A stretch of 63,936 bases of DNA, counting the filler, from an uncultured Methanosarcinales archaeon (lineage in GTDB: Archaea > Nanobdellota > Nanobdellia > Woesearchaeales > CALCXY01), in NCBI GenBank assembly GCA_964385185.1. It is 3 parts of 3 records of this genome, joined end to end, with 100 filler letters (N's around TTAATTAATTAA, not from the genome) between each part and the next. Parts side by side here need not be neighbours in the genome. Positions count along the whole stretch, not along the records: positions 1 to 23,427 come from CAYLOA010000019.1; 2 more parts are not named here. One strand, written 5' to 3'. Each line of letters begins with the position of its first letter. Position 1 is the stretch's first letter. A program made the translations under genes and the position numbers. The notes under the pieces are model-generated. The model was not told where the DNA came from, made no database searches, and saw nothing but the letters and a program-made list of their open reading frames with translations. Below are positions 1,404-24,534 of this stretch, piece by piece.

Positions 1404-1784
1404 ATGGCAGACGAGGACAATTCTGGTGGTAATGAAGGAAGTAGTGCACCACCTAAGAAAGAGACTCGTGGAAGGCCTACTAAATCTGAAGTTAGACAGA
1501 ATATGATTGAAATTCTGTTTTATATGAAAGAAGCTTATGGATATGATATTTATCGCCATTATAAAAAAATATTTGCTCCTGTTACACTTCGTCTTATTTA
1601 TTATCATCTTAAAAAAGGGATTGAGTTAGGAGAGTTTAAGATTTCTTCTGTTAAAAAAGAGCAAGGAAAGTTTTCCTGGGGTGGAGAAGTTGAGAAAAAG
1701 TATTATGCATTAGGTGATAATGCTAAGCCTAAGGATGAAATTAGAGTAAAAGAATTCTTTAGTAAATCTAGAGAAAGTTCTTAA
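1404..1784 (+). CDS. Winged-helix (PadR-like) DNA-binding protein
   Basis: AYGYDIY...TLRLIYYHLKKG...EKKYYAL pattern is PadR-like. N-terminal RGRP motif. TTTATTAA about 25 nt upstream. Confidence 0.65.
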   Translation: MADEDNSGGNEGSSAPPKKETRGRPTKSEVRQNMIEILFYMKEAYGYDIYRHYKKIFAPVTLRLIYYHLKKGIELGEFKISSVKKEQGKFSWGGEVEKKYYALGDNAKPKDEIRVKEFFSKSRESS

Positions 1785-4700
1785 AATGTTACTTCTATTC
1801 TGAATGTTGTTGAGATTTTTAAGATGTTATTAGCAGAGTCTGTGCATTGAACATGGTAGGTGTGGAAGCCTTCATCTAAGTCTATAAGTTGTTGTTCGAA
1901 GTGAAAGTCTGAAGCTTTAGTCATTGGGAAGAATCCTTCGTTTAGTTTTGTATTGTATCCGCAGACTATGTTTGATTTTGAAATAGGTTTTGCTAGAGTG
2001 ATTGCTAATATTGGATTTGGGGTAGATATGATTGCATCTTGTTGTGGAGCTATGATTATATTTTGTAGTCTTCTTGCTCTTGTAAGATTTATTGAATGGG
2101 AGATGGAGTTGGTGTTTCTTGTTTTATTGACTGTTCTCAGACAAGCTATATTGTATGTTTGATTGCCTTTGTTGGGTAATGTTGTGGAGCATTTATAGAG
2201 TCCGATGTCTATAGTGTTTGTTGTCTGGCAAGGTTGGAATTCGTGAGTCATTTCTTGATAGAGTTTTGTGCTATTTGAGAATCTGCATGTTAGTGGATCG
2301 TCTAGATGTAAGTCTAATTGAGTTGATGCTGAATCTGCATAGATGGTGGGATATTGGAGGAAATCTCCTGAAGCAGTTATGGTATTGAAGGATGTGTTGA
2401 GGTATCTTGATGGTGCTCTATTTTTTACTGAAAAGTTGGTGTGTTGTTCTAGCTTTATTCCATATGACTCAACTATTGGAGGGTTGTCTTTACATCTGAA
2501 GTGGTAGAGGGAGGAGTTTTGTGTGAACGGTAGTAGTGTTGTGCACCTATAGGATCCTCCATCGAATGGGTCTAATTGGTAGGGTGATGTGGGACAGGAT
2601 AATTGATGAGGCATGTTGTTGTATGTAGTATCTGTTGTACTATATTTACACTCGGATGGTTCATTGACGAATAGGTTGAATGAGACGTTTTGTGCTGAAG
2701 ATGAGATTGAAGACTCATTGTTTGGAGTGGAGCCTAAGAGTATAGGTGGGTTGGTATCTTTGTATGTTGTGTTCATAACGAAATGGATAAAGAACTCGTC
2801 TTCGTTGGTGTTTCCTGTTCTATCAGTACAAGAGATGAATATATAGTAGGATGATAGCTCCAATTCTCCCAGGATGGTTGTGGCTAATGCTTTTAGGAAT
2901 GAAATTTGTGAGACAAATGGTTGGAGGATGTTTAAAGCTGAAGAGATGATAGGGTTGATGATAGTTATAGGGTCAATTCCAGTAAATCTTTTGTAGATTG
3001 CAAAGTCATCTCTAAATCTGTCTTGATAGATTGCATATTGGTTTTCTAGGTCGAAAAGAATATCTGCAATTTGGGTTAACGAAGTTATGTTGAGACTGTC
3101 ATATACTTTTGAAGGGACTGCTAGACCTGGAGGTAATCTTAGTGAGATATTATGTTGTGTTTTGAACGTGGGATCTCCAAACCAGAATGAGGGGAAGAAT
3201 ATAAGATCTATTTTGGGGATGTAGTTTAATTGGCATCTTGATGGCTCAGAAGTGTTTATACGGAATTGGACTTTATCATAGGGGATAATTTCTGGGGTGA
3301 TTGTAATTCCTGGGTAGGTTGTGGTGTGTATTTTCAGGGTGTCGTCCACTGCTGTGTAGGGGTCATTAAGATATTCTCTGTCTACTTCGATCGTTGGAGG
3401 GGTAATGTCATTTTGAGTAATTGGATAGCAGGACGGAATTCCTTCAAAGGTGAGTTCGTATTGACACAGTTGTCCTAAAGATTTGCAACGGTATTCAGTG
3501 CAAGGTTTTATGGGGTCATCTGTGCATGATTGGCATTTTTGTCCTCCAAGAGGAGATTGCCAGTTTTGGCAGAAAGCATAGTCTAATACCTTTATTTCTG
3601 GATCTGGGGTGAAGGGATTTATGAAATCTGTTAAGGAGAGATCTACAAGATAATCTAGATAATTTAATCCTGCACTAAACATTATGGATAACGTGGATGC
3701 TGGATGAGGAAAGTCTCCTATAATTTGTTGTTGTTTTCTGTTTGTTGTCGTTGTTAGAGTAGCTTTACCAATTTCTCTTGGGTTTTCATTCAATCCTGGG
3801 TTTTGGGATATGATCGAAGACGGTGTTAAGACAGGATCTGTTATGAAATATCCATCCGTTGTTAAGGTGTCTTGATAGTTTCTAGAATTACCACAATCTC
3901 CCATTGCATTGCAGGTGTAGAGTGTGTCAAGTACCCATGCATTGGGGCAAGAGAATCCATCACATTCTTTGAAAGCAGTTGCGACATTACATACTTCATT
4001 TCCATTTCCTTCCCAGTGTTTAAAGCCTGGTGGAACTAAAGGAACACATTGTAGATCTGTTGCAAAGGTGTCATCCCATGAGCAATCTCGTATTTCTGTA
4101 TCTGAACAGCAGGATTCTGTTGTGCATTTAAAACAATCTTCCCATCTGTTATTTTTACAGGTAGCTTGAAGTTGGTTGTTTGATGTTGATTCTGTGCAGA
4201 ATTCCTCTCGATAATCTCTGCACGGTTCGATGACTTCTTTTCCGTTTAGACAAGAGTGTTTGTACGATCTTGATCCTACGTATGCTAATCCTCCAATCCC
4301 TGTTTGAGTGGTTAGGACGGAGTCATAAGAACACCAAGACTCACCATGGTTTCTTTTTGGTCCTGAATTGTCCTCTGTTGTAAATCGATATGTGGTATCA
4401 CAGTTGTTTGGAGTAGGTAAAGTAGTTGGGATGGATTTTGGTGCTGGGCAGGAGCATGCCTGGTTTTCTTTTAATCTGAAGTTATTATTGGTGCATTTAT
4501 TTTGGTCACCATTTTTGAAACAGGTGTTGTCAGAAGGTGAGATGCAACATCCAAAGGCGTAGTCTGTTGGAGGGAGGGAACCAATTTGAGAAACAGTTTC
4601 AGTTCCCTTTAATGCGAAGTTGAATGTTAAGTTTCTTTTGTTGGGGAGAGTTTTTGTGAGTGAGTAGGTAGTGTCTGGATATGGACGTTGTTTTTCTATA

Positions 4701-5371
4701 TTTATTGAGAGGTTGTTATTATACATCCATTCATCTTTGTTGAAAAATTCATTTTCTATTTCCTCATTTATTATTGAGATAGCCATGGAGTATAATTGGC
4801 CAAGAGGGATAGGGAGTATTTTTGCGTATGAGTCTACTTGGATTCTGTTATCTGTTTTCTCTAGTGTTAGTGGATATGATAGTTGGAATGCGATAGCTTC
4901 TGGCAGGATGTCTATGTCGAGTTTGAAGTTTCCAGGAGTTACATTGTAGCCTTCATTTTGGAATGCTTTTATGTCAATACAAGATTCAATTTCTTCAGAT
5001 GTTGCTTGGATTAATTCATATTCCATCTCTTCTCTTAGGAGTAATGTGTGAGCACAAGATTTGAATCCTGGAATGGGAACGCAAAGATAATGGTATAATT
5101 GTTGTTGATAGAGTTTGTAGTTTTCCCTGGTGTTGTTAATTGAACCTCCCAAAGATGCTAGATGAAGTATCGGTTCTATGGCTTCTCTTTCTATGCAAGA
5201 TTCCACGTATTGTTTTAGTGTTGCTTGGTCTAGAGATGAGGGGATGGCTGAAGCTTTTGCAATATTTGAGTTTGATTCTACGATGTTTTGGTTTAGGAAG
5301 ATGAATATTCCAAAGGATAGTGAGATGACTAAGGCTATGATCATAAATGAAGTTATTTGTGCCTTCTTCAT
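1781..5371 (-). CDS. Large Cys-rich surface protein with class III (prepilin-like) signal peptide and Ig-like C-terminal repeats
   Basis: N-terminus MKKAQ|ITSFMIIALVI (K-K-A/G-Q + hydrophobic stretch). Cys-rich middle and repeated T/N-EPSxCxY...FxCxD beta modules. 1196 aa. Confidence 0.75.
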   Translation of the reverse strand: MKKAQITSFMIIALVISLSFGIFIFLNQNIVESNSNIAKASAIPSSLDQATLKQYVESCIEREAIEPILHLASLGGSINNTRENYKLYQQQLYHYLCVPIPGFKSCAHTLLLREEMEYELIQATSEEIESCIDIKAFQNEGYNVTPGNFKLDIDILPEAIAFQLSYPLTLEKTDNRIQVDSYAKILPIPLGQLYSMAISIINEEIENEFFNKDEWMYNNNLSINIEKQRPYPDTTYSLTKTLPNKRNLTFNFALKGTETVSQIGSLPPTDYAFGCCISPSDNTCFKNGDQNKCTNNNFRLKENQACSCPAPKSIPTTLPTPNNCDTTYRFTTEDNSGPKRNHGESWCSYDSVLTTQTGIGGLAYVGSRSYKHSCLNGKEVIEPCRDYREEFCTESTSNNQLQATCKNNRWEDCFKCTTESCCSDTEIRDCSWDDTFATDLQCVPLVPPGFKHWEGNGNEVCNVATAFKECDGFSCPNAWVLDTLYTCNAMGDCGNSRNYQDTLTTDGYFITDPVLTPSSIISQNPGLNENPREIGKATLTTTTNRKQQQIIGDFPHPASTLSIMFSAGLNYLDYLVDLSLTDFINPFTPDPEIKVLDYAFCQNWQSPLGGQKCQSCTDDPIKPCTEYRCKSLGQLCQYELTFEGIPSCYPITQNDITPPTIEVDREYLNDPYTAVDDTLKIHTTTYPGITITPEIIPYDKVQFRINTSEPSRCQLNYIPKIDLIFFPSFWFGDPTFKTQHNISLRLPPGLAVPSKVYDSLNITSLTQIADILFDLENQYAIYQDRFRDDFAIYKRFTGIDPITIINPIISSALNILQPFVSQISFLKALATTILGELELSSYYIFISCTDRTGNTNEDEFFIHFVMNTTYKDTNPPILLGSTPNNESSISSSAQNVSFNLFVNEPSECKYSTTDTTYNNMPHQLSCPTSPYQLDPFDGGSYRCTTLLPFTQNSSLYHFRCKDNPPIVESYGIKLEQHTNFSVKNRAPSRYLNTSFNTITASGDFLQYPTIYADSASTQLDLHLDDPLTCRFSNSTKLYQEMTHEFQPCQTTNTIDIGLYKCSTTLPNKGNQTYNIACLRTVNKTRNTNSISHSINLTRARRLQNIIIAPQQDAIISTPNPILAITLAKPISKSNIVCGYNTKLNEGFFPMTKASDFHFEQQLIDLDEGFHTYHVQCTDSANNILKISTTFRIEVTF

Positions 5372-5505: not shown

Positions 5506-5523
5506 TTTTTGGAGTTTAACTTG

Positions 5524-5568
5524 TATAGGCCTATAATTAGGTTGCTTTATAGGCCTATGCTATTTAAA
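5524..5568 (-). promoter_or_regulatory. TATA box with two palindromic operator-like sites
   Basis: TTTAAATA (5561-5568, minus strand) followed by ATAGGCCTATA (5548-5558) and perfect TATAGGCCTATA (5524-5535). Confidence 0.65.
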
Positions 5569-5619: not shown

Positions 5620-5997
5620 ATGAAAAGTCTTTTAGTTATTGTTTTGTTGGCATGTTTGCTTGTTGTAAGTGGATGTGCAAGTTGTGGACAGCAGCAAGAG
5701 AATTGTAAATGTGATTGCCAAGGCGGAACTTGTTCTTTCAGTTGTGATGGAAGTGATGCAGGTGGATGTGGTGGCGGTCAAGGATGTAGTTGTGAAGATG
5801 CCGCTAAGAAAGGGGCAGATACTGAAGACGCTAAAAAGAGATGTGAAAGTAGGACAGCAGGTAGTCCAGAAGCTGATCCAATTCCTGCAAGTGGCTCAAG
5901 TGTCGATGAAGTAGAACCTGAGGAGCGAGAAGAAGAAGTTGTGGAAGAACCTAGTCCAGCTGGTATTACTACAGAGGGTGCTACCCAAGTAATTTAG
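5620..5997 (+). CDS. Small Cys/Gly-rich putative lipoprotein with acidic tail
   Basis: MKSLLVIVLLACLLVVSG|C lipobox-like signal, dense CxC/CxxC cluster, E-rich tail. Start moved from 5599 to ATG 5620, which lies downstream of a TTTAAATA box. Confidence 0.7.
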   Translation: MKSLLVIVLLACLLVVSGCASCGQQQENCKCDCQGGTCSFSCDGSDAGGCGGGQGCSCEDAAKKGADTEDAKKRCESRTAGSPEADPIPASGSSVDEVEPEEREEEVVEEPSPAGITTEGATQVI

Positions 5998-10586: not shown

Positions 10587-10712
10587 TTATATATAATTAG
10601 TACTAAAAATGGGCTAATAGGGTATAAATTAGGGTTGAATAAGGTTGAATAAGGTTGAATAAGGTTAATTAAGTATAAATTAAGGCTTAGAAATTAATAA
10701 ATTAGTACTAAT
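10587..10712 (+). promoter_or_regulatory. TATA box with two TTAGTACTAA palindromes flanking a 10-nt tandem repeat
   Basis: TTATATATA 10587-10595, TTAGTACTAA at 10597-10606 and 10702-10711, (GGTTGAATAA)x3 at 10633-10662. Confidence 0.6.
10633..10672 (+). repeat. Short tandem repeat (GGTTGAATAA)3 plus one degenerate unit
   Basis: Read directly from the sequence. Confidence 0.85.
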
Positions 10713-10738
10713 GGTAGGGTACAATGAGATGAAACTGA

Positions 10739-10888
10739 ATGGTTAAGGTTGTTGTGAATAACGGACAGTACAAAATAACGATTCCTAAAGAGATAGCTCT
10801 CGCCAAAGGGTGGAGCAAAAATACTCGAGTTTTAGTTTCTCTGGATGCAGAAGGTCAAGTCGTGTTGAGGGAGCTCTCTAAGAAATGA
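10739..10888 (+). CDS. Small AbrB/MazE/SpoVT-like DNA-binding protein (49 aa)
   Basis: Hand translation MVKVVVNNGQYKITIPKEIALAKGWSKNTRVLVSLDAEGQVVLRELSKK*. Its TGA overlaps the ATG of the giant gene. Paralog of 5368..5505. Confidence 0.85.
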   Translation: MVKVVVNNGQYKITIPKEIALAKGWSKNTRVLVSLDAEGQVVLRELSKK

Positions 10889-13800
10889 AATATAGAAATA
10901 TGATAGTGGTGTTGGCCATTTTGCTAGTTCTTAGTTTTGGCGTTTATGGAATTAGCTTGCCAAGCACTCCTGATTGTTTTACTGATAATGATTGTTCTGT
11001 TTTTAACAAAGGAGGGGTTGATTGTAGGGGTGGAGATTGTGTCTGTACTAGTAATTCCTGTGTTAAATCTGTCTGTCAAAATAATGTTAAAGAAGGTTTA
11101 GAAGATTGTGATGATGGAAATAGTAACAATGATGATGCTTGTAGTAGTACTTGTACTTTAACTTTTTGTGGAGATGGAGATACTCAACAACCTAATGGTA
11201 ATGATCTTTCTGAACAATGTGATGATGGTGTAGGAAATTCCAATAGTTGTGTTCCTGGACGGGATGGTGAGTGTACTGTTTGTACTGACCAATGTCTTTC
11301 TCAAACGTTTATTGGAAGTTTTTGTGGAGATTCTCAAGTTGATTCTGCATTTGGTGAGACCTGTGATGATGGGAATACAGTGAACGATGATGGTTGTACT
11401 AATGGATGTTTACTTCCTGCTTGCGGAGATGGTATTCAACAAAATGGTGAGGCTTGTGATGATGGAAATAGTGTGAATACCGATAGTTGTACTAATGCTT
11501 GTACATTGGCTGTATGTGGAGATAGTTTTACTCAAACAGGTGAAGAGTGTGATGATGGTAACGACAATAATAATGATGGTTGTACTAATTCTTGTACCGT
11601 ATTGAGTTGTGGAGATGGATTTATCCAAGGTAGTGAGCAATGTGATGATGGGGTGAATAATGCTGATAGTTGTGTTGCTAGCAGGGATGGCAGTTGTGAT
11701 GTGTGTACTACAGCTTGTGTAGAAAAAACTGTTGTGGGTAGTAGTTGTGGAGATGGCAATGTAGATTCTCATTTTGAACAATGTGATGATGGTAATACTA
11801 ATAGTAATGATGGGTGTAGTAGTACTTGTCGTGATGAATCTTGTGGGGATGGTATACAACAAAGCAATGAAGCATGCGATCTAGGTAGTAATAATGCCAA
11901 CACAGGAACTTGTACTGATGCATGTTCTCTTGCTACTTGTGGGGATGGATTTACTCAAAGTGGAGAGACTTGTGATGATGGTAATAGTGATGAAGATGAT
12001 GGATGTAGTAGTAGTTGTCAAATAGAATTCTGTGGAGATGAAATTCGGCAAGCAAATGAAGCCTGTGATGCTGGCCCTAATGGGAATTTATTATGTACCA
12101 GTTCATGTACACTTACCTTTTGTGGAGATGGAGTAACACAGATTGAAAATGGTGAAGAGGTTGATGAGGCTTGTGATGATGGAAATTCAGTGGAAAGCGA
12201 TGGATGTAATAATATCTGTCAACTTACTATCTGTGGAGATGATATCGTTCAACAACCAAATGGAAACTTACTAGCAGAAGTATGTGATGACGGTACTGAT
12301 AATGCAAATAATTGTGTTGCAACTAGGGATGGTACTTGTTCCTTTTGTGATGTAAATACCTGTCAACCTGCTGATGTTACCGGTGCCTTTTGTGGTGACG
12401 GTAACTTTGATATTGGAGATGAGCAATGCTCAGATTCTAATGCTGCAGGATTCTGTGTAGAGGATTGTAATCAAAATATTAAACCTGAAATCACTTTTAT
12501 TAGTCCAAGTGCTGGAGACAATATGCCTCTTGGGCAAGAAATCGAGGTAGAAGTACGAGTTGTTGATAGAGATGTTAAAGCTGCCAATACATTACAAAGG
12601 ATAGATTTTACGGTTAAACTTGGAAATTCAGTTGTTAGTGAAGAGAGGATTACGAGTATTGGTGAAAACCAATTTTTTACTCACACTTTTACCCCTGTTG
12701 AAACAGGATCGTATTCTATTCAAGTTAAAGCTATAGATAGTGATGTTACGGTTGGCAGTATTGGAGCGGTGACTGAAGTCGATGCTACTATTCAGCTCAA
12801 AACTGTGAAAGAGTTAGGAATTGGAGATAATGATATTGCCACCTATACTTTAAACGATGAATCAATCCAAATTACTGATCCTCCTGAAAAACCTTCACTT
12901 ACTAGTCGATTTGTTCTTTGGTTACGAGGGCTTGTAGGATTTGCAGTTCGAACCAGTGTCATTGCCGATGCTGATCAAAGTAAGGTGGTTAATAATGGAG
13001 CTGATTTCAAAGCTTTCTTATCCTATACTATAGTAAATAGCGCATCCCAAGCTGTTAAAAGAGTAGGACCTACTGAGATTGAGGTGGGGAGAGTAGAAAA
13101 ATTAGATGTTCTCTTCGATGATCTTGCAGGACAAGATGGAAGTAACTTATTTGGATGGGATCCGTTTGATCGAGATATAAGTGTGCAAAGTGTTGAAGAT
13201 ATCTTTGGACTGTATCAACTAAAAGTTCATCTAGAAGATTCTGATGGTGTTGTGATTCGAAATACAGATGGAAGGTCGTTAGCGGTTGTGAGTGATTTTA
13301 GGATTGCAGAATTATGTGGAGATGGAAGAGCAACTGGTGATGAAGTTTGTGATGAAAGTGAATTTGCAGGTAAAGTCTGCTCAGATTTCTTAAATTCTGG
13401 AGGTAAACCATTTACAGGTGGTAGTCTTACTTGTTCTGATAGTTGTGATTTGTCAACGACAGTTGCTTGTGTAACTGAACCTGGATGTGAAAATGGATTA
13501 CGAGACAGTGATATTTCACTTCAAGAGACTGATGTTGATTGTGGAGGTCCTATTGTTAATGGGTGTAGTAGATGTGCTATAACTCAAGCATGTGGTGTAG
13601 ATACTGATTGTGGTAGTGGATTAATTTGTCAAACCAATGTGTGTGTAAAAGATCCTGTTTGTGGAGATTCAGTATTAGATGAGGGAGAGGCTTGTGATGA
13701 TGGAAATACTGTGAATAATGATGTGTGTAGCAGTACTTGTACCAATACTTTTTGTAGTGACTCAGTTCAACAAAGTCCTAATGGTGCGGGACAATTTGAA

Positions 13801-16800
13801 TCTTGTGATGATGGAAATGTAGCTAATAATGATGGATGTAACAGCGTATGTCAAAATGAACAATGTGGAGATGGAGTTCAACAAAATGGAGAATCTTGTG
13901 ATGATGGAAATACTAATAATGGTGATGGATGTAGTGCCTCATGTAATGTAGAGGTGTGTGGAGATGGAGTTGTGCAAACTCCTAATGCTGCTGGATTTAC
14001 TGAATTGTGTGATGATGGAGTCAGTGGAAGTGATACTTGTAACTCACAATGTACCTTCACTTTCTGTGGAGATGGAGTTCGGCAATCTGGTGAGGCTTGT
14101 GATGATGGAAATGGTAATAATAATGATGGATGTAGTGCTACTTGTAGTGAAGAAAGATGTGGAGATGGGATTGTTCAAACAATTGAGGGCTGTGATCTTG
14201 GATTAGGTAATTCTAATACAGGAAGTTGTACATTAAGTTGTAGTTTGGCTGAATGTGGGGATGGATTTAGACAGGTTGGGGAGGCTTGTGATGATGGAGA
14301 TGCCAATTCCAATACAGGAAGTTGTACTTTAAGTTGTAATGTTGCTGGTTGTGGAGATGGATTTTTACAATCAGGTGAGGCTTGTGATGATGGAAATAAT
14401 TTGAATACTGATAGTTGTACAAATGCTTGTGTAGCTGCAGTTTGTGGAGACAGTTTTGTACAATCTGGTGAGGAATGTGACTTTGGAGTTAGTAATTCAA
14501 ATACTGGAATTTGTACTACTTCTTGTTTGTTGCCTACCTGCGGGGATGGATTTAGACAAGCAAGTGAGCAATGTGATGAGGGAGAACAAAATTCTAATAC
14601 AGGAAGTTGTACTTTAACGTGTAGGACTGATCTGTGTGGAGATGGGTTTGTTCAGTCTGGAGAGTTCTGTGATGATGGTAATACCAATAGTGGAGATGGA
14701 TGTAGTAATAGTTGTTTGTTAGAAGTGTGTGGAGATGGGATTGTGCAAACTCCTAATAGAGATGGTCAAAATGAAGCTTGTGATGATGGAAATACTGTTG
14801 ATACTGATAGTTGTACTAATGCTTGTGAAGCTTCCTTCTGTGGAGATGGGACTCAACAATCTGGAGAGGCTTGTGATGACGGTAATGAAATTAATAATGA
14901 TGGATGTAGTGATCTTTGTGTAGTTGAATTCTGTGGAGATGGGATTCAACAGGCTAGTGAGGCTTGTGATGATGGAAACTTAGTCAATAATGATGCATGT
15001 AGCAGTAGTTGTGAGATTGAAGTGTGTGGAGATCAGATTATACAGACAGGTGAGCAGTGTGATGATGGTAATTTCTTAGAGAATGATGCTTGTACTAATT
15101 CTTGTAGGGTAACTACCTGTGGAGATGGTAGGGTGCAAGTTCCTAATGGTGAAGGGGTTTCTGAGAGTTGTGATGATGGAAATAGTGTGAATAATGATGA
15201 GTGCAGTAATTCTTGTAGAGTTACCTTCTGTGGAGATGGTATAATTCAATCTGGAGGGAATGGTTTGGGTGTAGATGAAGGTTGTGATGATGGGGCAGAT
15301 AACGCAAATAGTTGTGTTGCAACTAGGGATGGTACTTGTTCCTTTTGTGATGTAAATACCTGTCAACCTGCTGATGTTACCGGTGCCTTTTGTGGTGACG
15401 GTAACTTTGATATTGGAGATGAGCAATGCTCAGATTCTAATGCTGCAGGATTCTGCTTGGCTGATTGTGATCAAAACATTTTACCTGATATTTCTATTTT
15501 AGAACCTGAAAATGGAGATATTATTCCACTTGGAAAAACTGTTAATATTATAGCTACCGTTACTGATCAAGATATCAACCCAGAGAGAGATTTGGAAGAT
15601 GTAGAAATTATTGTTGAATTGAGAGGTAGGGAGATTACTAAAACTAAATCTAATTCAGTGGGCTCAGTGAGTTCATTTAGTTTTCCCTTCTTACCAGAGC
15701 AAACAGGAGATTATGTTATTAAAGTCATAGCTACTGATTCTGTGGATACAGAGAAAAGTATTGTTGTTCGTTCTGAGATTGATGCGAGTATTCAGATGAA
15801 GACTCTTAAAGATATTAATCTCCCTCCAGGAGAGATTGCAACGTATACGTTACTTGATAAATCTGTACAGTTGACTGATCCTCCCGACCCTGAACCACTT
15901 GTGAAACGAGTAGTAGGATGGTTGAGAGGTTTAGTAGGGTTTGCTGTTCGAGCAAGTGTTGTGGCAGAAGAAGATCAAAGTAAAATTGTCAATAGGGGAG
16001 CTCCGTTTGAGGCTTTTATACGATATCAAATTATTCAAAATTCATTGGCAATAAAGACTATAGGGCCTGTGCCTCTTGCTGTGGATAGTTTAGTTAAGTT
16101 AGATATTACCTTTGATGAATTGTCTGGACAATCCAATGTATTCGGATGGATTCCTACAGATAGGGTTGATACTAATGTAGTTACAGAGGATTTATTTGGA
16201 AGTTATCAATTTAGGGCTCAACTTTTAGATTCCAGCGGAACTGTATTGCATAATAAAGATGAAAATTCATTGACTGTTCTTAGTCCCTTTGTTATTGCAC
16301 CTACCTGTGGAGATACTATTAGGACTGGAGATGAAGTGTGTGATACTACTGACTTTGGAAGTGTACAGTGTAGTGATTTCTTGAATACAGCAGGAAATGC
16401 ATTTACTGGTGGGAGCCTTAGTTGTGGAAATAGTTGTGAAGCAATAGATAAAAGTCAATGTGTAACTGCTGCTGCTTGTGAAAATGGATTATTAGATGCA
16501 GGAAATCCTTTATTTGAAACTGATACTGACTGTGGTGGTCCTGTTGCAAATGGTTGTAGTAGATGTGCAATTACTGATAGTTGCTTAGTTAACTCTGATT
16601 GTGGAACTGGATTGTTATGTGAATCAAATGTATGTGTAAAAGAAGCTGTGTGTGGTGATGGAGTTTTAGATGAAGGGGAAGTGTGTGATGGATCTTCCTC
16701 TGGTGCTCAACCTCTTTGTACTGATCATGCCTTTGGTTCAGGGACCTTCGATTCTGGAGTTGTGGGTTGTGCTGCCGATTGTGGAAGTTATATTTTAACT

Positions 16801-19800
16801 GAATGTAATGTGTGTGGAAATAATGAGTTAGAAGATGGTGAACAGTGTGATGGTAGTGTCCCAAGTGGAACTACTTGTAATCTTGTTGATCCTGATAATA
16901 CTATAGGAAAGGGAACTTTAAGTTGTAGTTCAAGTTGTACCTTGGATGAGGGTGCCTGTTTACAATGTCAAGATGATCCTGCATGTGGATCTGTTGATGA
17001 TATTGTTTGTGATGGTGGACGAAATTTCCAGACATGTGAGCTTGTTAATGGATGTTTACAATTATCTACTACTTCATCTTGTTCGAATGTAATTGATGGT
17101 GGAGATTCCGAAGTTATTTGTCAGCAAAATGAGTGTAGGGTAGAACCTGATGTTATTATTACCTTAGTGAGTCCTACAGTAAGTGCAGTTCCAAGTGCTG
17201 ATGTGAATTTGGTTGTGAGTACGAACAAAGCTGCAAGTTGTACTATTAATATTGGAAATGGGGGGGTGGGTATGTCCAGTGAAGATCAGATTACTCATAC
17301 GAGAAGTGTTACTTTACCTCAGAATGGAGATAACGACCTCATCTTCACGTGTACTGATGACCTTACTGGAAAAACGGTTCCTATTACAGAAACTATTGCT
17401 CTACGAGTTGAAGAACCTGGGATTGGTGCAATTACATTTTTACCGCAAGGTGCAACTACTGTTCAAAATCTTGTAGAGATAGGTACTGGAAATTTACGAT
17501 TTTCCACAGATGAGCTTAGTACTTGTAGATTTGATTTTGGAGTGAATGACTTTTCAAGAATGCAGGAAACTGTTGGTGATGGAAATGGTCGAAATGTACA
17601 TCAAACTGATGTAGTTATTGATGAACTGCGTACTGACCAGATTTTGTTGTTTGTGGGATGTATCACTGAGGTAGGTGTTGTTGAAACCAAACCTCTTACC
17701 ATTGATGTAACATTGAATGCTGAATTTACAGCAAGTGTGGTAAGTCCTCTTGGAGAGGTTGATTTAGGAAGTGTTATTGTAGAAGTTGAAACCAATAAAA
17801 GAGCATTTTGTAAATTACAGGTGGAGGAGGGATTACAATCAGGATTATTACAATCTAATGATCGACATACTCATTCAAGGGCATTTTTAGATTTGGAAGA
17901 AGGAACGTATGTATTTGAACTTCTTTGTCAGAGTGATGATAATGAATTACTTACACAGAGTATTCCGTTTGAGTTCTTCCCTAATGGAAAACCTCCAAGC
18001 TGTAATGATGGTTCTCAGAATGGTGATGAATCTGATGTTGACTGTGGGGGAAGTTGTGGAGGATGTGGAATATCTATTCAATGTGGTGTGAGTTCTGATT
18101 GTAGTTCCAACTTTTGTTCATCTGGTGTATGTGCAGAGGCTTCTTGTACTGATGAAATACAAAACGGACAAGAGACTGCTGTTGATTGTGGTGGAAGTTG
18201 CATTTGTACAACAGGACAAGCTTGCCAAGATAATAATCAATGTGATAGCAGTTCTTGTACAGCCCAAGGTGTTTGTGGAGCAGCTACTTGTATAGATGGA
18301 ATCAAGAACCAAGATGAATCTAGTGTAGATTGTGGAGGATCATGCAAAGGATGTGGAACTGAGGTGTTCTGTAATATAGATAGTGATTGTAGAGATGGAA
18401 TTTGTGGAAGTATTAATTCACCTAATGATCATTTATGTGCTGCTCCAAGTTGTTTCGATTCTGTACAGAATGGATTAGAGACAGGACTTAACTGTGGTAG
18501 AGATTGTGCTGCTTGTAATGTAGGTAATGGATGTTTACTTAATTCAGATTGTGTTGAAGGTGTTTGTGATTCTGGCTCAGGATTATGTGCAGCTGCTAGT
18601 TGTAATGATAGAGTTCTTAATGGTGGAGAGAGTGGGGTAGACTGCGGCGGAAGTTGTAGTGCTACTTGTGATGTGGGCATAGGTTGTTTTAGTGTTACTG
18701 ATTGTAGTTCAGGAATTTGTTCATCTGGTGTGTGTACGGCGCCTACGTGTGAAGATGGACTGCAAAATCAAGGAGAAAGTGATGTAGACTGTGGTGGAAG
18801 TTGTGGAGTTTGTGGAGCTGGAGATACCTGTACGGAGGGTAGTGATTGTAGTTCTAATAAATGTAAGGGGGGATTTTGTACTATTCCGTCTTGTAGTGAT
18901 TCCGTTCTCAACCAGGATGAAACTGGTATTGATTGTGGAGGAGATGTTTGTGGAACATGTCAGATTGGAGACAGCTGTAGTGTAGGAGATGATTGTTTTA
19001 CTGATATTTGTGTAAGTGAAGTGTGTGTTGCTCAAACTTGTGAAGATGGAATAACTAATCAAGATGAGAATGATGTGGATTGTGGTGGAGTCTGTGGAGC
19101 ATGCTCTGAAGGAAATAGTTGTGATATTAGTTCTGATTGTACAAGCAATGTGTGTAAACCTAATGTGGATGGAGATTTTGTATGTCAAGCTCCTAGTTGT
19201 GATGATACTGTGAAAAATGGCAATGAAGCTGATGTAGATTGTGGTGGAAGTTGTGATGAAGCTTGTGTTGCTGGTAATACTTGTAGTATAATATCTGATT
19301 GTAGTGTAGATACCACTTGTACTAATGGTGTTTGTGTTGCTTGTCGACATGCATGTGATATTGATAGTGAGACAGTGTGTACAGATGACTTTAAACAACA
19401 GATTTGTGATGATGTAGATGGAGATCATTGTAGAGATCCTAGTTTTCCTCTTTCCTGTTCAGCTGGAGAATTTTGTGTGAATGATGGATGTGAATTATTG
19501 CTTGATAATAAGCTGACATTGGTTGAGCCAAGTTTTGGAATTGCCAATACAGGAACATTTAGAGTTGTTGTAGAGACTGATAGAGATGCAACTTGTAGGC
19601 AAAGTACTTCAGATGTTGTGTTTGATCAGATGGGTGCATTTAATGTTAATAATGGTGATAGGCATGTCTTGAATCAGCTTGGATTTATTGGGAATCAGGG
19701 AAGTCTTTTTGTAACTTGTGTTGATGTTGTTACCCAGGAGAGCTTTTCTGCTGAGTATGCACTTTCTGTGGATAAACAGCCACCGAAGATTATTGTGAGT

Positions 19801-22800
19801 GCTAGTCCTAATCCTATTGTAGAATCTCCAGCCTTGAGTCTGATTAGAGTTGAAGGGAGTACTGAGGTTCATTGTAGAATAAGTGGAAGTAGTACGGTCT
19901 TTGATGAGATGGAAGACTTAGGTAAGGGTGAGTTTAGTGATTCTCATACCTATAAAACTCCTCATTTACCTGATGGTGGAAGTACCTTCAATGTCGTGTG
20001 TAGAAATAGAGCTGGAGGCGAAGTTTCAGGGTCTGTAACCTTAGATGTTGATTTAGGAGCTAGCTTTGTTGTTAAAGATCGAACTGATGATTTGTTTGTG
20101 GAAAACTCTGGTGTTTTACGGGTTGGTACCAATAAAGCAGCTAGTTGTAGTGTTGAGCGGCCAAGTGGTACTGTTGTTATGGAACCTGATGCTGGAAATT
20201 TAGTGCATGCTCTTACTTTGGTAGGATTGGTAGATGGACTGCAATCTCAATTAGTTACGTGTGAGTCTTTTGAATCTCAGGATGTGGTGAGTTTGGATAT
20301 TTCCTTTGATGTTGCAATCGGTGGGGTCAAGGAAAGTTGTATAGATGGTATTTTGAATCAAGATGAATCAAGTGTAGATTGTGGTGGTGAAGTATGTGGA
20401 GCTTGTTCAGAAGGAGATCGTTGTAAAGTGGTAAGTGATTGTGATATTGATAGTACTTGTGGTAGCGGGGTGTGTGTTGCTTGTCAACATGAGTGTGTGG
20501 ATACTGGTGTAACTGTATGTAATGGATTAGATATTCAAACCTGTCAAGATGCAGATAAAGATCATTGTAGAGAGCTTAGTGAAGCTGTGAGTTGTGCTGT
20601 TGGGCAAGTGTGTCAAGATGATGTATGTAGTGCGCCTACTGTTTTGAAGGGTAAGATTAGCACTCCGGCCTTTGGAGAGGTTGATAAACATGTCTTTAGA
20701 CTTGAAGTGGAAACGAGTAGGGTAGCTACCTGTGTCTGGGATACTTTTGATAGGTCTTTCGATGATATGAAAGAATTTACTGGAGGAGATGGTAGTTTGC
20801 ATACTGTTGAAGGTGTGAATATTCCTGGTAGGGTTGGAGGGGTGTTCGTACGATGTGTGGATCCTCTTGCTGATGGAGTGAGTCTTCCTCAGGAGATTTC
20901 CTTTAATCAAAAAATAATTGTTGATCCGAATCCTCCTATCATTGAGTTTTCGATTGCAGATCCGAATCCGATTACTGATATTCCTGAAAAAACAAGTTTG
21001 ATTGTACATACTGACAAACCTTCGGTATGTGATTTTGTTGAGGGACAGGTAGGTACTAATGGTTTAGAAGGGGATTTCCCTGGAAAAGAGGATGGAGTCT
21101 TTATTACTGAACATGAAGTTATTTTAGATAAATTTGATCTTAGTCAGAAGGAATATGAGTTCAGAGTTACTTGTGAAAGTAAGGCAGGTGTAAGTGTTGC
21201 TGCTAAAATACCTGTAACACTTGCATCAGATGAATTATTTAAGATAACTGATACAGAATTGGCTCCGATTAGTGATATTGATCAGAATGCCTTAGAGATT
21301 GTCACCAATAAATTGGCAAGCTGTGAGTTAGATTTAGATGGTAGTAAGATTAGGCTTAAACAAGAAGATAGATTACACTATACACACCTGTTTAATGAGT
21401 TAACTGAGAGAGAATATCCTTTTACCGTTACTTGTCTTACTAATAGTTTCCAGGAAGATACTCGAGACTTGACATTTAGGGCGATAGAGGGTGGAGAGAA
21501 TTGTCATGATGGATTCCAGAATCAATTGGGAACTGAATTAGCAGAGACTGATGTTGATTGTGGAGGAGATAATACATGTGATCGATGTGAAGCTGGTAAG
21601 AAATGTGTTATTGGCGTTGACTGTGTGTCTCAGGTTTGTGGTGTAGATGGATTATGCCAAGTAGCTAGTTGTAGTGATGGAGTTCAAAATCAAGATGAAG
21701 AGAAAATTGACTGCGGAGGAGATATTTGTGCACGATGTCCTAATATTCCACCAGTTGTGCTTGGGTTGCATGCGGATAAAGAAGGTGTAGAGATTGGAGA
21801 TAGTGTTAAGTTTATTTGTGAGGCTTCCGATGAAGAGTCAAGCAACAATAAACTCATTGGAGAATTTTATTTGCGACAAACTGAGAGTCCAAATTGGAAT
21901 TTAAAAGAAAAAGAAAAGATGTTTTACTCAGATGAAGATGATAACTTTGTATTCAATTATCAAGTAGATGATTTACCTATTGGTCAAGAATTTGTAGGCC
22001 ACTGTGTTATTAGTGATGATGAAGATAGTCAAGGTTTAACGAATGCAGACTTAGGTGTTACTGTAATAAATAGCTTACCTGTTGTGAATCTTCTAACCTT
22101 TGAACCTTTAGATTTAATTCAGAAAAAAGTACGGTTTATTTGCAGAAGTAGTGATAAAAATGAAGATGAATCTAGTCTTGACGTTCGGATGACTGTTAGT
22201 AAAGATGGGAGAGAACTCTTTAGAGGGGCAGCTGCCGTTGATACTCTTAGTGGAGGTCACTTTGTTGATCTGAGTGGGGTGGAAGAAGGTGTTCATGATA
22301 TTACTTGTGAAGTGTTTGATCAAGGAAATGATGTTATTGTTTTACAAGAGAGTAGTGTAGCAGGTGGAATAAGAAAAGTGAATGTTGATTATAATGCCTT
22401 TAAAGACGATATTGATCCTGTATTTGGAGAGATTAGGATTGTTCCTTTCAAAGATAGAACAACTGTCTTCTGGGCTGCAAATGAGCTCGTCAATGGAACT
22501 TTGTTAGTTAAGAAATTAAAAGATGGTAGCCAGGTGGGAATACCAGAAACAACCTTTAAGATAACTCATGAAACGTTAGCTACTGGTTTGGAACCGTCTA
22601 CTGATTATTCGGTTGCTATTATTGCTAGTGATCCTTCAGGAAATATTGCACCTTCCAAAACACTGAGCTTTACCACCACAGGAGCATCCAGTTGTAATGT
22701 TGATACTGATTGTGATCTTACTCAGATGTGTATTGCAAATAGCTGTAGAAAGATTCCTGTTTGTGGAGATAATGTCGCAGACTTTGAAAGTTTCTATGCT

Positions 22801-23403
22801 GGAAGGTCTGATAGAGAAGTTTGTGATTTAGGTGATGCTGCTAATTTAACCTGTACAAATTATCCTGGAGCTGCTGCTGCAGGATTTACAGGAGGAGCAT
22901 TATCATGTGTAACTTCAGTTCCAACCTGTGGATTTGGAGATATTAATACCAGTCAATGCTTTACTTGTGGAGACGGTACACATACTCCTGAGAAGGGTGA
23001 AGTGTGTGAAGTAAATATGAAGACTACCTGTGGTGCTTTAGGTATTGGTGTTGGCGAGGCTACTTGCAGCAATAGTTGTGAGTGGGATGTCAGCGAATGT
23101 AGTTTCTGTGGAAATAATGTGTGTGAAGCTGCTGAAGGTGAGAATGCTGCTAGTTGTGGTGTAGATTGTAAAGGGGAGGGAGCATCATGTAACTTAGATG
23201 AACAGTGTGAGACTGGCTATGAATGTACTCCTGGAAAACTGTGTACAATTACTTCCAAAATTGAATGTAGGACTAACAGTACTTGTTCAAGTGGAGAGTT
23301 TTGTAACGATGCTCTACGATGTGCAGATATTATAGAGTGTACTAGAAATAGTGACTGTGATGATGGATATAGATGTAGCAATGATAATAAGTGTAGCACC
23401 TGA
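10885..23403 (+). CDS. Giant (4172 aa) secreted Cys-rich surface protein with DUF4215/Myxococcus-type Cys repeats, Ig-like and FN3-like domains
   Basis: Sec-type signal peptide. Dozens of CGDG...E-x-CDDGN...DGCS..C repeats and CxDGxxNxxExDVDCGGxC repeats, interspersed beta-sandwich domains, and an FN3-like H...TGLEPSTDYSV segment. No C-terminal TM. Confidence 0.9.
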   Translation: MKYRNMIVVLAILLVLSFGVYGISLPSTPDCFTDNDCSVFNKGGVDCRGGDCVCTSNSCVKSVCQNNVKEGLEDCDDGNSNNDDACSSTCTLTFCGDGDTQQPNGNDLSEQCDDGVGNSNSCVPGRDGECTVCTDQCLSQTFIGSFCGDSQVDSAFGETCDDGNTVNDDGCTNGCLLPACGDGIQQNGEACDDGNSVNTDSCTNACTLAVCGDSFTQTGEECDDGNDNNNDGCTNSCTVLSCGDGFIQGSEQCDDGVNNADSCVASRDGSCDVCTTACVEKTVVGSSCGDGNVDSHFEQCDDGNTNSNDGCSSTCRDESCGDGIQQSNEACDLGSNNANTGTCTDACSLATCGDGFTQSGETCDDGNSDEDDGCSSSCQIEFCGDEIRQANEACDAGPNGNLLCTSSCTLTFCGDGVTQIENGEEVDEACDDGNSVESDGCNNICQLTICGDDIVQQPNGNLLAEVCDDGTDNANNCVATRDGTCSFCDVNTCQPADVTGAFCGDGNFDIGDEQCSDSNAAGFCVEDCNQNIKPEITFISPSAGDNMPLGQEIEVEVRVVDRDVKAANTLQRIDFTVKLGNSVVSEERITSIGENQFFTHTFTPVETGSYSIQVKAIDSDVTVGSIGAVTEVDATIQLKTVKELGIGDNDIATYTLNDESIQITDPPEKPSLTSRFVLWLRGLVGFAVRTSVIADADQSKVVNNGADFKAFLSYTIVNSASQAVKRVGPTEIEVGRVEKLDVLFDDLAGQDGSNLFGWDPFDRDISVQSVEDIFGLYQLKVHLEDSDGVVIRNTDGRSLAVVSDFRIAELCGDGRATGDEVCDESEFAGKVCSDFLNSGGKPFTGGSLTCSDSCDLSTTVACVTEPGCENGLRDSDISLQETDVDCGGPIVNGCSRCAITQACGVDTDCGSGLICQTNVCVKDPVCGDSVLDEGEACDDGNTVNNDVCSSTCTNTFCSDSVQQSPNGAGQFESCDDGNVANNDGCNSVCQNEQCGDGVQQNGESCDDGNTNNGDGCSASCNVEVCGDGVVQTPNAAGFTELCDDGVSGSDTCNSQCTFTFCGDGVRQSGEACDDGNGNNNDGCSATCSEERCGDGIVQTIEGCDLGLGNSNTGSCTLSCSLAECGDGFRQVGEACDDGDANSNTGSCTLSCNVAGCGDGFLQSGEACDDGNNLNTDSCTNACVAAVCGDSFVQSGEECDFGVSNSNTGICTTSCLLPTCGDGFRQASEQCDEGEQNSNTGSCTLTCRTDLCGDGFVQSGEFCDDGNTNSGDGCSNSCLLEVCGDGIVQTPNRDGQNEACDDGNTVDTDSCTNACEASFCGDGTQQSGEACDDGNEINNDGCSDLCVVEFCGDGIQQASEACDDGNLVNNDACSSSCEIEVCGDQIIQTGEQCDDGNFLENDACTNSCRVTTCGDGRVQVPNGEGVSESCDDGNSVNNDECSNSCRVTFCGDGIIQSGGNGLGVDEGCDDGADNANSCVATRDGTCSFCDVNTCQPADVTGAFCGDGNFDIGDEQCSDSNAAGFCLADCDQNILPDISILEPENGDIIPLGKTVNIIATVTDQDINPERDLEDVEIIVELRGREITKTKSNSVGSVSSFSFPFLPEQTGDYVIKVIATDSVDTEKSIVVRSEIDASIQMKTLKDINLPPGEIATYTLLDKSVQLTDPPDPEPLVKRVVGWLRGLVGFAVRASVVAEEDQSKIVNRGAPFEAFIRYQIIQNSLAIKTIGPVPLAVDSLVKLDITFDELSGQSNVFGWIPTDRVDTNVVTEDLFGSYQFRAQLLDSSGTVLHNKDENSLTVLSPFVIAPTCGDTIRTGDEVCDTTDFGSVQCSDFLNTAGNAFTGGSLSCGNSCEAIDKSQCVTAAACENGLLDAGNPLFETDTDCGGPVANGCSRCAITDSCLVNSDCGTGLLCESNVCVKEAVCGDGVLDEGEVCDGSSSGAQPLCTDHAFGSGTFDSGVVGCAADCGSYILTECNVCGNNELEDGEQCDGSVPSGTTCNLVDPDNTIGKGTLSCSSSCTLDEGACLQCQDDPACGSVDDIVCDGGRNFQTCELVNGCLQLSTTSSCSNVIDGGDSEVICQQNECRVEPDVIITLVSPTVSAVPSADVNLVVSTNKAASCTINIGNGGVGMSSEDQITHTRSVTLPQNGDNDLIFTCTDDLTGKTVPITETIALRVEEPGIGAITFLPQGATTVQNLVEIGTGNLRFSTDELSTCRFDFGVNDFSRMQETVGDGNGRNVHQTDVVIDELRTDQILLFVGCITEVGVVETKPLTIDVTLNAEFTASVVSPLGEVDLGSVIVEVETNKRAFCKLQVEEGLQSGLLQSNDRHTHSRAFLDLEEGTYVFELLCQSDDNELLTQSIPFEFFPNGKPPSCNDGSQNGDESDVDCGGSCGGCGISIQCGVSSDCSSNFCSSGVCAEASCTDEIQNGQETAVDCGGSCICTTGQACQDNNQCDSSSCTAQGVCGAATCIDGIKNQDESSVDCGGSCKGCGTEVFCNIDSDCRDGICGSINSPNDHLCAAPSCFDSVQNGLETGLNCGRDCAACNVGNGCLLNSDCVEGVCDSGSGLCAAASCNDRVLNGGESGVDCGGSCSATCDVGIGCFSVTDCSSGICSSGVCTAPTCEDGLQNQGESDVDCGGSCGVCGAGDTCTEGSDCSSNKCKGGFCTIPSCSDSVLNQDETGIDCGGDVCGTCQIGDSCSVGDDCFTDICVSEVCVAQTCEDGITNQDENDVDCGGVCGACSEGNSCDISSDCTSNVCKPNVDGDFVCQAPSCDDTVKNGNEADVDCGGSCDEACVAGNTCSIISDCSVDTTCTNGVCVACRHACDIDSETVCTDDFKQQICDDVDGDHCRDPSFPLSCSAGEFCVNDGCELLLDNKLTLVEPSFGIANTGTFRVVVETDRDATCRQSTSDVVFDQMGAFNVNNGDRHVLNQLGFIGNQGSLFVTCVDVVTQESFSAEYALSVDKQPPKIIVSASPNPIVESPALSLIRVEGSTEVHCRISGSSTVFDEMEDLGKGEFSDSHTYKTPHLPDGGSTFNVVCRNRAGGEVSGSVTLDVDLGASFVVKDRTDDLFVENSGVLRVGTNKAASCSVERPSGTVVMEPDAGNLVHALTLVGLVDGLQSQLVTCESFESQDVVSLDISFDVAIGGVKESCIDGILNQDESSVDCGGEVCGACSEGDRCKVVSDCDIDSTCGSGVCVACQHECVDTGVTVCNGLDIQTCQDADKDHCRELSEAVSCAVGQVCQDDVCSAPTVLKGKISTPAFGEVDKHVFRLEVETSRVATCVWDTFDRSFDDMKEFTGGDGSLHTVEGVNIPGRVGGVFVRCVDPLADGVSLPQEISFNQKIIVDPNPPIIEFSIADPNPITDIPEKTSLIVHTDKPSVCDFVEGQVGTNGLEGDFPGKEDGVFITEHEVILDKFDLSQKEYEFRVTCESKAGVSVAAKIPVTLASDELFKITDTELAPISDIDQNALEIVTNKLASCELDLDGSKIRLKQEDRLHYTHLFNELTEREYPFTVTCLTNSFQEDTRDLTFRAIEGGENCHDGFQNQLGTELAETDVDCGGDNTCDRCEAGKKCVIGVDCVSQVCGVDGLCQVASCSDGVQNQDEEKIDCGGDICARCPNIPPVVLGLHADKEGVEIGDSVKFICEASDEESSNNKLIGEFYLRQTESPNWNLKEKEKMFYSDEDDNFVFNYQVDDLPIGQEFVGHCVISDDEDSQGLTNADLGVTVINSLPVVNLLTFEPLDLIQKKVRFICRSSDKNEDESSLDVRMTVSKDGRELFRGAAAVDTLSGGHFVDLSGVEEGVHDITCEVFDQGNDVIVLQESSVAGGIRKVNVDYNAFKDDIDPVFGEIRIVPFKDRTTVFWAANELVNGTLLVKKLKDGSQVGIPETTFKITHETLATGLEPSTDYSVAIIASDPSGNIAPSKTLSFTTTGASSCNVDTDCDLTQMCIANSCRKIPVCGDNVADFESFYAGRSDREVCDLGDAANLTCTNYPGAAAAGFTGGALSCVTSVPTCGFGDINTSQCFTCGDGTHTPEKGEVCEVNMKTTCGALGIGVGEATCSNSCEWDVSECSFCGNNVCEAAEGENAASCGVDCKGEGASCNLDEQCETGYECTPGKLCTITSKIECRTNSTCSSGEFCNDALRCADIIECTRNSDCDDGYRCSNDNKCST
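12312..12455 (+). repeat. 144-bp exact direct repeat, copy A
   Basis: Identical to 15312-15455. Confidence 0.9.
15312..15455 (+). repeat. 144-bp exact direct repeat, copy B
   Basis: Identical to 12312-12455, offset exactly 3000 nt. Confidence 0.9.
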
Positions 23404-23427: not shown

Positions 23428-23527
23428 NNNNNNNNNNNNNNNNNNNNNNNNNNNNNNNNNNNNNNNNNNNNTTAATTAATTAANNNNNNNNNNNNNNNNN
23501 NNNNNNNNNNNNNNNNNNNNNNNNNNN
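23428..23527. other. Artificial contig spacer
   Basis: N-run + TTAATTAATTAA (stops in all six frames) + N-run, 100 nt. The same layout occurs at 46744. Confidence 0.95.

Positions 23528-24534
<1,007 letters not shown>

Follow-up and report, generated by a model that had tools for sequence, protein, structure and literature searches.

How does an archaeon keep the output of a very large and costly surface protein within bounds? The genomes of DPANN archaea are tiny and encode few recognisable regulators alongside very large surface proteins, and the question is posed by a stretch of 63,936 nucleotides (hereafter the window) from the archaeal assembly GCA_964385185.1, in which an open reading frame (ORF) of 49 amino acids runs directly into the start of a gene for a 4172-residue protein. 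We consider it likely that this region is a self-limiting cassette, whose autorepressor is transcribed together with the surface-protein gene and binds a set of helically phased operators at their common promoter. Below, the small protein is called mini-AbrB and the protein encoded downstream of it the cargo.

Paired palindromes upstream of the small gene

The cassette lies on the + strand. A TATA box (TTATATATAA, 10587..10596), preceded by a purine-rich stretch (aaaagac) that resembles a transcription factor B recognition element (BRE), is abutted with a gap of 0 nt (10596/10597) by the predicted distal operator O1 (10597..10606), a palindrome with the sequence TTAGTACTAA and the core TAGTACTA at 10598-10605. 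The predicted proximal operator O2 (10701..10712; palindrome ATTAGTACTAAT, core at 10703-10710) contains a second exact copy of TTAGTACTAA at 10702-10711, follows an A/T-rich, TATA-like stretch, and is separated from O1 by an array of 10-nt tandem repeats (10616..10685, + strand; 6.7 copies at 80% matches, with 3.4 perfect copies at 10633-10666). From the end of this second copy, 27 nt lead to the ATG of the mini-AbrB gene (10739..10888, + strand), whose 49-residue product P0001 (MVKVVVNNGQYKITIPKEIALAKGWSKNTRVLVSLDAEGQVVLRELSKK, opening with MVKVVVNNGQYKITIPKEIALAKGW) is a predicted autorepressor, as judged from its translation, hidden Markov models (HMMs), family and structural model. The TGA of this gene shares the tetranucleotide ATGA with the ATG of the cargo gene (10885..23403, + strand). 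The 4172-residue cargo is rich in cysteine (8.3%) and carries one N-terminal hydrophobic segment, 16 DUF4215 stretches and Ig-like (Big_7) regions; its gene stops 24 nt short of the linker that joins the first contig to the next. The original prediction for this locus, i.e., a short ORF at 10739-10888 with an ATGA overlap onto the giant gene, a TATA box followed within 2 nt by a palindrome, and a second copy 27 nt before the start codon, agrees with these positions throughout.

Taken alone, the window is weak evidence for operators, because the number of one-mismatch occurrences of TTAGTACTAA is unremarkable against chance (5 matches versus 3.53 expected, with at least 5 in 28 of 100 shuffles). 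The exact palindrome occurs only twice in the 63,936 bases, and three further TAGTACTA cores each lie inside an ORF. The weight rests instead on the co-location of both copies and on their conservation across genomes.

That conservation was assessed in 33 related loci (numbered with the prefix L), collected in one scan of species-representative genomes with the single peptide pattern GQYKITIP; proteins with other loop sequences, including 27 of the type encoded by the second cassette described below, fall outside this set. Exact TAGTACTA cores occur 60 times in the 447,957 bases covered, and 51 of them are located no more than 230 nt upstream of a small gene, which corresponds to 6.95 cores per kb in these upstream regions versus 0.020 per kb elsewhere (approximately 340-fold). 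At least one exact core is found upstream in 27 of the 33 loci, in support of the palindromic operators proposed earlier, and at least two in 23; with one mismatch allowed, these numbers rise to 31 and 28, respectively. Four loci (L012, L023, L025, and L026) have neither an exact core nor coupling to a large gene, and L025 and L026 lack the core even with one mismatch.

The cores are arranged in helical phase. Among 22 spacings between successive exact cores (counted after dropping the near-duplicates L009, L010, and L011, the locus L033 with its one exact core, and every locus with fewer than two exact cores), 19 fall within 1 nt of a multiple of 11, 16 of them exactly; for a period of 10.8 bp the resultant length R comes to 0.87, a value reached by none of 20,000 random sets. 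The sequence between the strong sites follows the same period: 8-mers in phase with them match the core at a mean of 4.57 of 8 positions (56% with five or more), versus 1.8–3.4 of 8 for out-of-phase 8-mers (at most 21% with five or more). Intervening sequences of equal length are only 32–68% identical, and the equal spacing is therefore not simply a matter of recent shared ancestry. Mixed arrays are also observed. In L017, TAGTACTA is followed in phase by TAGCGCTA (+33), TAGGCCTA (+55), and again TAGTACTA (+98), and in L005 a TAGGCCTA site is located 11 nt ahead of the proximal TAGTACTA; each of these two loci has two small genes.

The promoter geometry of the window recurs as well. A purine-rich stretch and the motif TTTAWATA are located ahead of the distal core in related loci, the TATA motif starts 9–13 nt before that core in 14 of the 33 (11 nt in the window), and in many the distal site begins 0–3 nt past the TATA box. 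In the closest relative, L001, the two operators are 65 bp apart, versus 105 bp in the window, and the 10-nt repeat makes up the 40-nt excess; the promoter alignment of the two is convincing over the BRE/TATA/O1 block only. Their small proteins are 83% identical over 46 matched residues, and the giant protein of the window shares 27% identity with the L001 cargo over part of its length.

Family and fold of the small protein

By sequence comparison, the small gene represents a conserved family of approximately 50 residues in Woesearchaeota and Nanoarchaeota. A word-based search yields 139 relatives of 26–86 residues; those with a named source come from these two groups and are called as genes in public annotations, so that the gene, first described as hidden, is hidden only with respect to the ORF length cut-off used there. 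A few relatives are annotated as AbrB/MazE/SpoVT (some by NCBI) or as a PrlF-type antitoxin, and of the 120 listed, 22 have a precomputed PF04014 assignment. Across 61 aligned sequences, Lys3, Val4, Gly9, Gln10, Lys12, Thr14, and Pro16 are invariant and the N-terminal stretch MVKVVVNNGQYKITIPK is nearly so, followed by C-terminal tails that are short, variable and rich in Lys and Glu. An exhaustive profile search returned 255 representative clusters at E ≤ 0.001, among them natural fusions of two and four domains; a few long repetitive proteins that also appear among the matches were rejected as true relatives, their similarity being a chance ‘TIPK’ motif in Ig-like repeats.

Codon usage indicates that the small ORF is translated. 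Sixteen copies with an identical 17-residue N-terminal peptide show 1091 pairwise nucleotide differences, all at third codon positions. Since these copies were picked for the identical peptide, the lack of non-synonymous change is given by construction, and what is informative is that synonymous change is saturated.

We note several variations on the single gene. It is duplicated in tandem in six loci (L005, L006, L013, L017, L021, and L029), where the cargo gene comes after the second copy; fusions of 2, 4 or many domains are found among P0122-P0129, P0133, P0139, P0170, and P0236; and one relative is joined to the C-terminus of an HsdM-like methylase. Eleven loci (L002-L004, L009, L012, L013, L016, L019, L021, L029, and L033) carry the label Methanosarcinales, and their small proteins and cassettes group with those of Woesearchaeota and Nanoarchaeota; on this grouping, the labels may be wrong.

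The fold of the small protein is AbrB/MazE/SpoVT-like, as judged from profile matches and predicted models, in keeping with the relationship proposed at the outset. The family matches PF04014 at E ≤ 0.01 in 51 of 61 members (best 5.5e-7). The matches of the two window copies are sub-threshold: P0001 scores 19.6 bits against PF04014 (E 8.9e-4) and 23.3 bits against TIGR01439 (E 3.7e-5), and its paralog P0002, encoded by the second cassette, scores 19.6 bits (E 9.2e-4) and 17.1 bits (E 3.3e-3), respectively. In the AlphaFold2 monomer model, of moderate confidence (predicted local distance difference test, pLDDT, 72.7), the elements follow the order beta-beta-alpha-beta-beta, with strands at residues 2–6, 11–15, 31–35, and 41–45 and a helix at residues 17–23; the chain stops four residues past the fourth strand. 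Foldseek ranks 1–11 are all SpoVT, MazE, AbrB-N, C56, Sso7c4 or Sso7c4-like structures (probability 0.63–0.99), and the top neighbours have template modelling (TM) scores of 0.48–0.62 at E ≥ 0.085. One fused two-domain relative is modelled as a single compact unit (pLDDT 92.5, predicted TM score 0.81) and is structurally similar to MraZ–promoter complexes and to plant B3 domains. Together with the AbrB dimer, MraZ and B3 domains are members of the ‘cradle-loop barrel’ group. Formation of the swapped-hairpin dimer characteristic of the AbrB fold is predicted for the small protein, with indirect support from the existence of fused two-domain relatives, from the compact model of one of them and from the tandem duplicates of six loci.

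Coupling, cargo and the second cassette

The small gene overlaps the next gene in 26 of the 33 loci (by 4, 11, 14, 17 or 20 nt) and is separated from it by a 6-nt gap in two more. Its own start mostly has no Shine-Dalgarno motif, and the cargo start often has a GGAG(G) 9–13 nt upstream, i.e., within the last codons of the small gene. The downstream gene encodes at least 1000 residues in 14 of the 33 loci, versus 2.9% of 377 background ORFs (binomial tail 1.6e-13), and at least 600 residues in 22 of 33, versus 10.1% (7.6e-15); the background was drawn from the same loci and includes the cargo genes, and two cargo genes run off their contigs and could not be sized. Counted once per cargo cluster, the enrichment still stands at 5e-7. 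In 26 of 28 cargo proteins, a hydrophobic segment lies within the first 200 residues. The expectation that homologs precede large secreted genes is borne out by these counts, and that of a giant cargo in part, the proteins being often large and not always giant (from 290 to more than 3300 residues).

The cargo proteins are of surface type, with Ig-like, LamG, beta-helix, cadherin-like, RCC1, CBM96, DUF285, and MopE-type domains (Pfam). The cargo of L014 (L014:1501-11487, more than 3329 residues) contains eight LamG-type (Laminin_G_3) stretches together with lectin-like matches under several Pfam names. The idea that the cargo proteins are all unrelated was discarded, since BLAST arranges 30 of them in 12 clusters, the largest with 13 members. 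In addition, an uncharacterised N-proximal module, detected with two HMMs, is common to 17 of the 30 and is found in neither cargo of the window. This module is extracellular and comprises about 650 residues with a 220-residue core, spanning residues ~35–750 in L004, L014, L019, L020, L024, and L030 and occurring further in L005/6/13/17, L021, L027-L029, and L031-L033. It matches no Pfam or NCBIfam family and nothing firm in the protein atlas; its similarity to Bdello_MAT_N, the N-terminal domain of the Bdellovibrio ‘mosaic adhesive trimer’ fibre, reaches E 2e-6 and is below the cut-off.

The notion of a reusable regulatory system is upheld by the recurrence of the arrangement in 33 loci, and is only partly upheld as reuse before unrelated cargo, given the module shared by 17 of 30. 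Synteny is conserved only among close relatives (window and L001; L008, L009, and L011); the cassette has no fixed chromosomal setting. Cargo classes cluster with regulator clades (10 changes, versus a shuffled mean of 17.2), on a tree too poorly resolved to count cargo replacements.

A second cassette is located on the − strand of the same contig, at 1781-5568. Its TATA box (TTTAAATA, 5561..5568) is followed after 2 nt by a distal palindrome ATAGGCCTAT (5549..5558), with a proximal copy of ATAGGCCTAT (5525..5534) at a spacing of 24 nt (14 nt between the two) and 19 nt before the ATG of the paralog P0002 (5368..5505, − strand). P0002 consists of 45 residues beginning with MVKVFFSKNGQVKVTIPK, belongs to a narrower subfamily of 27 proteins, and shares 15 of 23 N-terminal residues with P0001. 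The downstream gene (1781..5371, − strand), again joined by an ATGA overlap, encodes a 1196-residue cargo with an N-terminal hydrophobic segment and a weak Big_13 match. The architecture had been described as identical to that of the first cassette; the layout (small paralog, ATGA, TATA box and two palindromes) is indeed repeated, and the palindrome and its 24-nt spacing are different. The ortholog of P0002 in L001 is preceded by ATAACCCTAT/ATAGGGTTAT, likewise at a 24-nt spacing. A divergent paralog with a palindrome of its own and an ortholog with related half-sites fit matched protein–site pairs. No third copy of the small gene was found in the window, by a motif scan or by a six-frame HMM search of the window and the loci.

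Divergently from the second cassette, a gene at 5620-5997 (+ strand) encodes a 125-residue Cys-rich acidic protein with a lipoprotein-like signal (…LLVVSGC…). The two have a 114-nt intergenic region in common, and this gene might be under the second-cassette operators too.

Both cassettes lie on the first of three joined contigs, and the adjacency of anything beyond 23427 to the giant gene is not established; the linkers (N44-TTAATTAATTAA-N44, at 23428-23527 and 46744-46843) are artificial, and the genes flanking them are not known neighbours. A partial archaeal small subunit ribosomal RNA is encoded at 23528-24534 (− strand), covering Rfam model positions 4–828 at the gathering threshold and extending to about 1090 in a local scan. 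Truncation by an intron or by the giant gene was considered and rejected, the cut being the contig end and linker, i.e., a joining artefact. The second contig also carries a run of genes with VWA-domain and AAA-type ATPase products (25454-29862, − strand), which is unrelated to the cassettes, and no tRNA was found in the window.

Proposed mechanism, alternatives and known systems

In the mechanism that we propose, the small protein would dimerise and bind the palindromes, and dimers on sites spaced by approximately 11 bp would line up on the same side of the helix, with cooperative binding; in most relatives, the degenerate in-phase sites that separate the strong pair would be filled as well. 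With a dimer on the site next to the TATA box, polymerase would not be recruited, and the operon would therefore repress itself. Known archaeal repressors (e.g., MDR1, LrpA, and Phr) sit at this TATA-adjacent position and block polymerase recruitment. The first 150 nt of the transcript would give the repressor, and translation of the cargo would begin at the overlapping start, so that the level of repressor would follow the output of the operon and cap the costly protein.

Several observations weigh against this reading. Binding of P0001 to the sites, repression, cooperativity and coupled translation are all inferred. The window itself is the outlier among the spacings: its O1–O2 distance of 105 bp corresponds to 10 × 10.5 bp rather than to a multiple of 11, and the spacer, being a 10-nt repeat, holds few operator-like in-phase sites. 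Six of the 33 loci have no exact TAGTACTA core and five show no coupling to the downstream gene, and the proximal site often lies directly at an ATG without a Shine-Dalgarno motif, which fits one promoter or two, the second being perhaps leaderless. The related loci are not independent samples, and the tree of the family leaves 18 of 32 inner branches open. On the side of the fold, P0001 and P0002 fall under the curated HMM cut-offs (24.7 bits for PF04014 and 28.3 bits for TIGR01439), and Foldseek gives no match at E ≤ 0.001 for so short a chain. When the profile is compared with solved structures, the two best matches are to an unrelated molybdate/tungstate-binding protein, with SpoVT, C56, and C68 next at E 0.03–0.07. 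Finally, the argument from protein–site co-variation is based on one orthologous pair in one lineage.

Might another factor, e.g., a global regulator, occupy the palindromes, with the small protein acting, for instance, as a DNA coat in the manner of Sso7c4? The structural neighbours do include Sso7c4 and a Sso7c4-like ‘histone-like protein’, the small protein has no ligand- or partner-binding extension, and the evidence that it binds is not direct. Against this, the motif is confined to the region upstream of the small gene, with 9 of 60 cores elsewhere in 440 kb, where a hand estimate from base composition gives about 13 by chance; the three other cores of the window, as noted above, all lie within ORFs. 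The small genes of L025 and L026, which sit behind another gene and have a Shine-Dalgarno motif, lack the palindrome, and the divergent paralog goes with a different one. The invariant Lys3, Gly9, Gln10, Lys12, Thr14, and Pro16, moreover, are located in the N-terminal hairpin and loop, which is the region that contacts DNA in AbrB-type proteins. We judge a separate factor improbable. A similarly low probability attaches to the small protein binding the sites as an activator, or as both activator and repressor, in a positive feedback or switch. A phased multi-site array would suit cooperative, switch-like behaviour, and the A/T-rich stretch at the proximal site could mark a second promoter; in many loci, however, the distal site starts just past the TATA box, and the archaeal activators known so far bind ahead of BRE/TATA.

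We give very little credence to two further explanations. The small gene could be an orphan or degenerate type II antitoxin of the MazE/PrlF kind next to a large gene by accident, in line with its best Pfam match (the MazE antitoxin family) and with one public source that labels relatives ‘antitoxin component of YhaV-PrlF’. Yet none of the 28 coupled loci has a small toxin-like gene downstream, the partners being membrane or secreted proteins of 290 to more than 3300 residues with surface-type domains, as the original prediction of an antitoxin-like fold with non-toxin cargo had it; the chain ends a few residues past its last strand, leaving no toxin-binding tail, and the arrangement is kept across genomes of 31–50% G+C. 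Alternatively, the palindromes could act in RNA, the first copy pairing with the second in the 5′ leader and hiding the start region. Both copies, if transcribed, do pair over 11 bp in the minimum-energy fold, but this fold is no more stable than that of shuffled sequence (z = −0.40; equal or greater stability in 68 of 200 shuffles), and the hairpin was rejected on that ground. By promoter geometry, the distal copy, which abuts the TATA box, would lie upstream of the transcription start. In addition, a hairpin needs only an inverted repeat, not two conserved, fixed self-palindromes at whole-turn spacing.

Autorepression through a phased array can also be taken further, to a picture that we regard as rather unlikely, albeit less so than the alternatives above. 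Here the cassette would be a portable ‘governor’ of DPANN host-contact proteins, in which bare swapped-hairpin dimers would polymerise in a switch-like manner along one side of the DNA, on an array quantised in helical turns. The cassette would have been recombined before unrelated cargo several times, and it would be a rheostat or phase switch, passed on by inheritance, for the attachment proteins of organisms whose way of life is attachment. The length of the array would be tuned by gain or loss of 10–11-nt repeat units (compare the perfect 10-nt repeats between O1 and O2 in the window), leading to on/off expression of a rapidly diversifying surface protein.

In sum, the cassette is probably a built-in brake on costly cell-surface proteins, in an arrangement that recurs in related tiny archaea. 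It provides a concrete, if predicted, regulator–operator pair for an uncultivated lineage and an 8–10-bp motif with a strict helical-phase rule, and small gene and motif together are a simple marker by which a surface-protein locus can be flagged in new genomes. The very large surface proteins of DPANN archaea are thought to mediate host contact, as described for the SPEARE proteins of Nanohaloarchaeota (passages of PMC6642349). The family assignment is already present in databases; the cassette, its operator grammar and the link to large surface proteins appear undescribed. Within the portions of papers returned by a full-text search, none ties AbrB-type proteins to DPANN surface genes or reports the motif there, and in the portion returned of a paper with both ‘AbrB’ and ‘DPANN’, AbrB figures solely as an antitoxin label in a figure legend.

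How, then, does the cassette relate to characterised systems? Like the AbrB/MazE/SpoVT domain (PF04014, TIGR01439), which gives the best sequence and structure matches, mini-AbrB comprises some 45–50 residues in the order beta-beta-alpha-beta-beta; it differs in being the bare domain, with no C-terminal part for oligomerisation or partner binding and with the distinctive N-terminus MVKVVVNNGQYKITIPK. Among archaeal proteins, Sso7c4, C56 of pSSVi, and C68 of pSSVx are dimeric DNA binders of about 50–60 residues in the same fold class, and Sso7c4 is described, in the part of PMC3159460 consulted, as a chromatin protein that curves DNA. The similarity to them is weak in sequence (E 0.03–0.07, as given above) and, for Sso7c4, in fold (2l66, probability 0.75). 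In contrast to that chromatin protein, mini-AbrB is accompanied at its promoter by one particular conserved palindrome, and such a locus-specific motif argues for specific binding. Cooperative occupancy of several promoter sites, as predicted here, is known for Bacillus AbrB, several tetramers of which bind over long promoter stretches (excerpts of bioRxiv 10.1101/2024.08.12.607668). AbrB, however, forms tetramers through a C-terminal domain and serves a global regulon with weak sequence specificity; mini-AbrB has no such domain, goes with a sharp 8–10-bp motif and, as far as 448 kb suggest, would serve its own locus only.

The closest parallels in operon design are MazE and MraZ. MazE of E. 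coli mazEF is a small AbrB-fold protein, encoded first in its operon, that binds and represses its own promoter palindrome (in the passages seen of PMC4333400), and mini-AbrB is likewise small, of AbrB-like fold and encoded first, with a palindrome at its own promoter to which binding is predicted. The second gene here encodes a large surface protein instead, at least two phased sites take the place of a single palindrome, and the promoter is archaeal, with a site abutting the TATA box. The mini-AbrB cassette is not a toxin–antitoxin pair, for it lacks both a toxin and a tail to bind one: the downstream genes of the window encode 4172 and 1196 residues, the small proteins have no C-terminal toxin-wrapping extension, and toxin-enhanced binding would therefore have no place. 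MraZ, an AbrB-related ‘cradle’ protein encoded first in the dcw operon, binds several repeated promoter boxes (according to the sections available of PMC12957436); the first position in the operon and the several promoter sites are shared, and fused two-domain relatives of mini-AbrB resemble MraZ in structure (PDB 9sz7 and 9r4j). MraZ itself is a fused two-domain chain that forms octamers on direct repeats ahead of bacterial division genes, whereas the proteins of the window are single-domain, go with palindromes and precede surface-protein genes in archaea, so that for them the resemblance is one of working principle only. On that principle, an antitoxin-type fold would serve as first-gene autorepressor of a non-toxin operon in archaea, in parallel with MraZ and MazE in bacteria.

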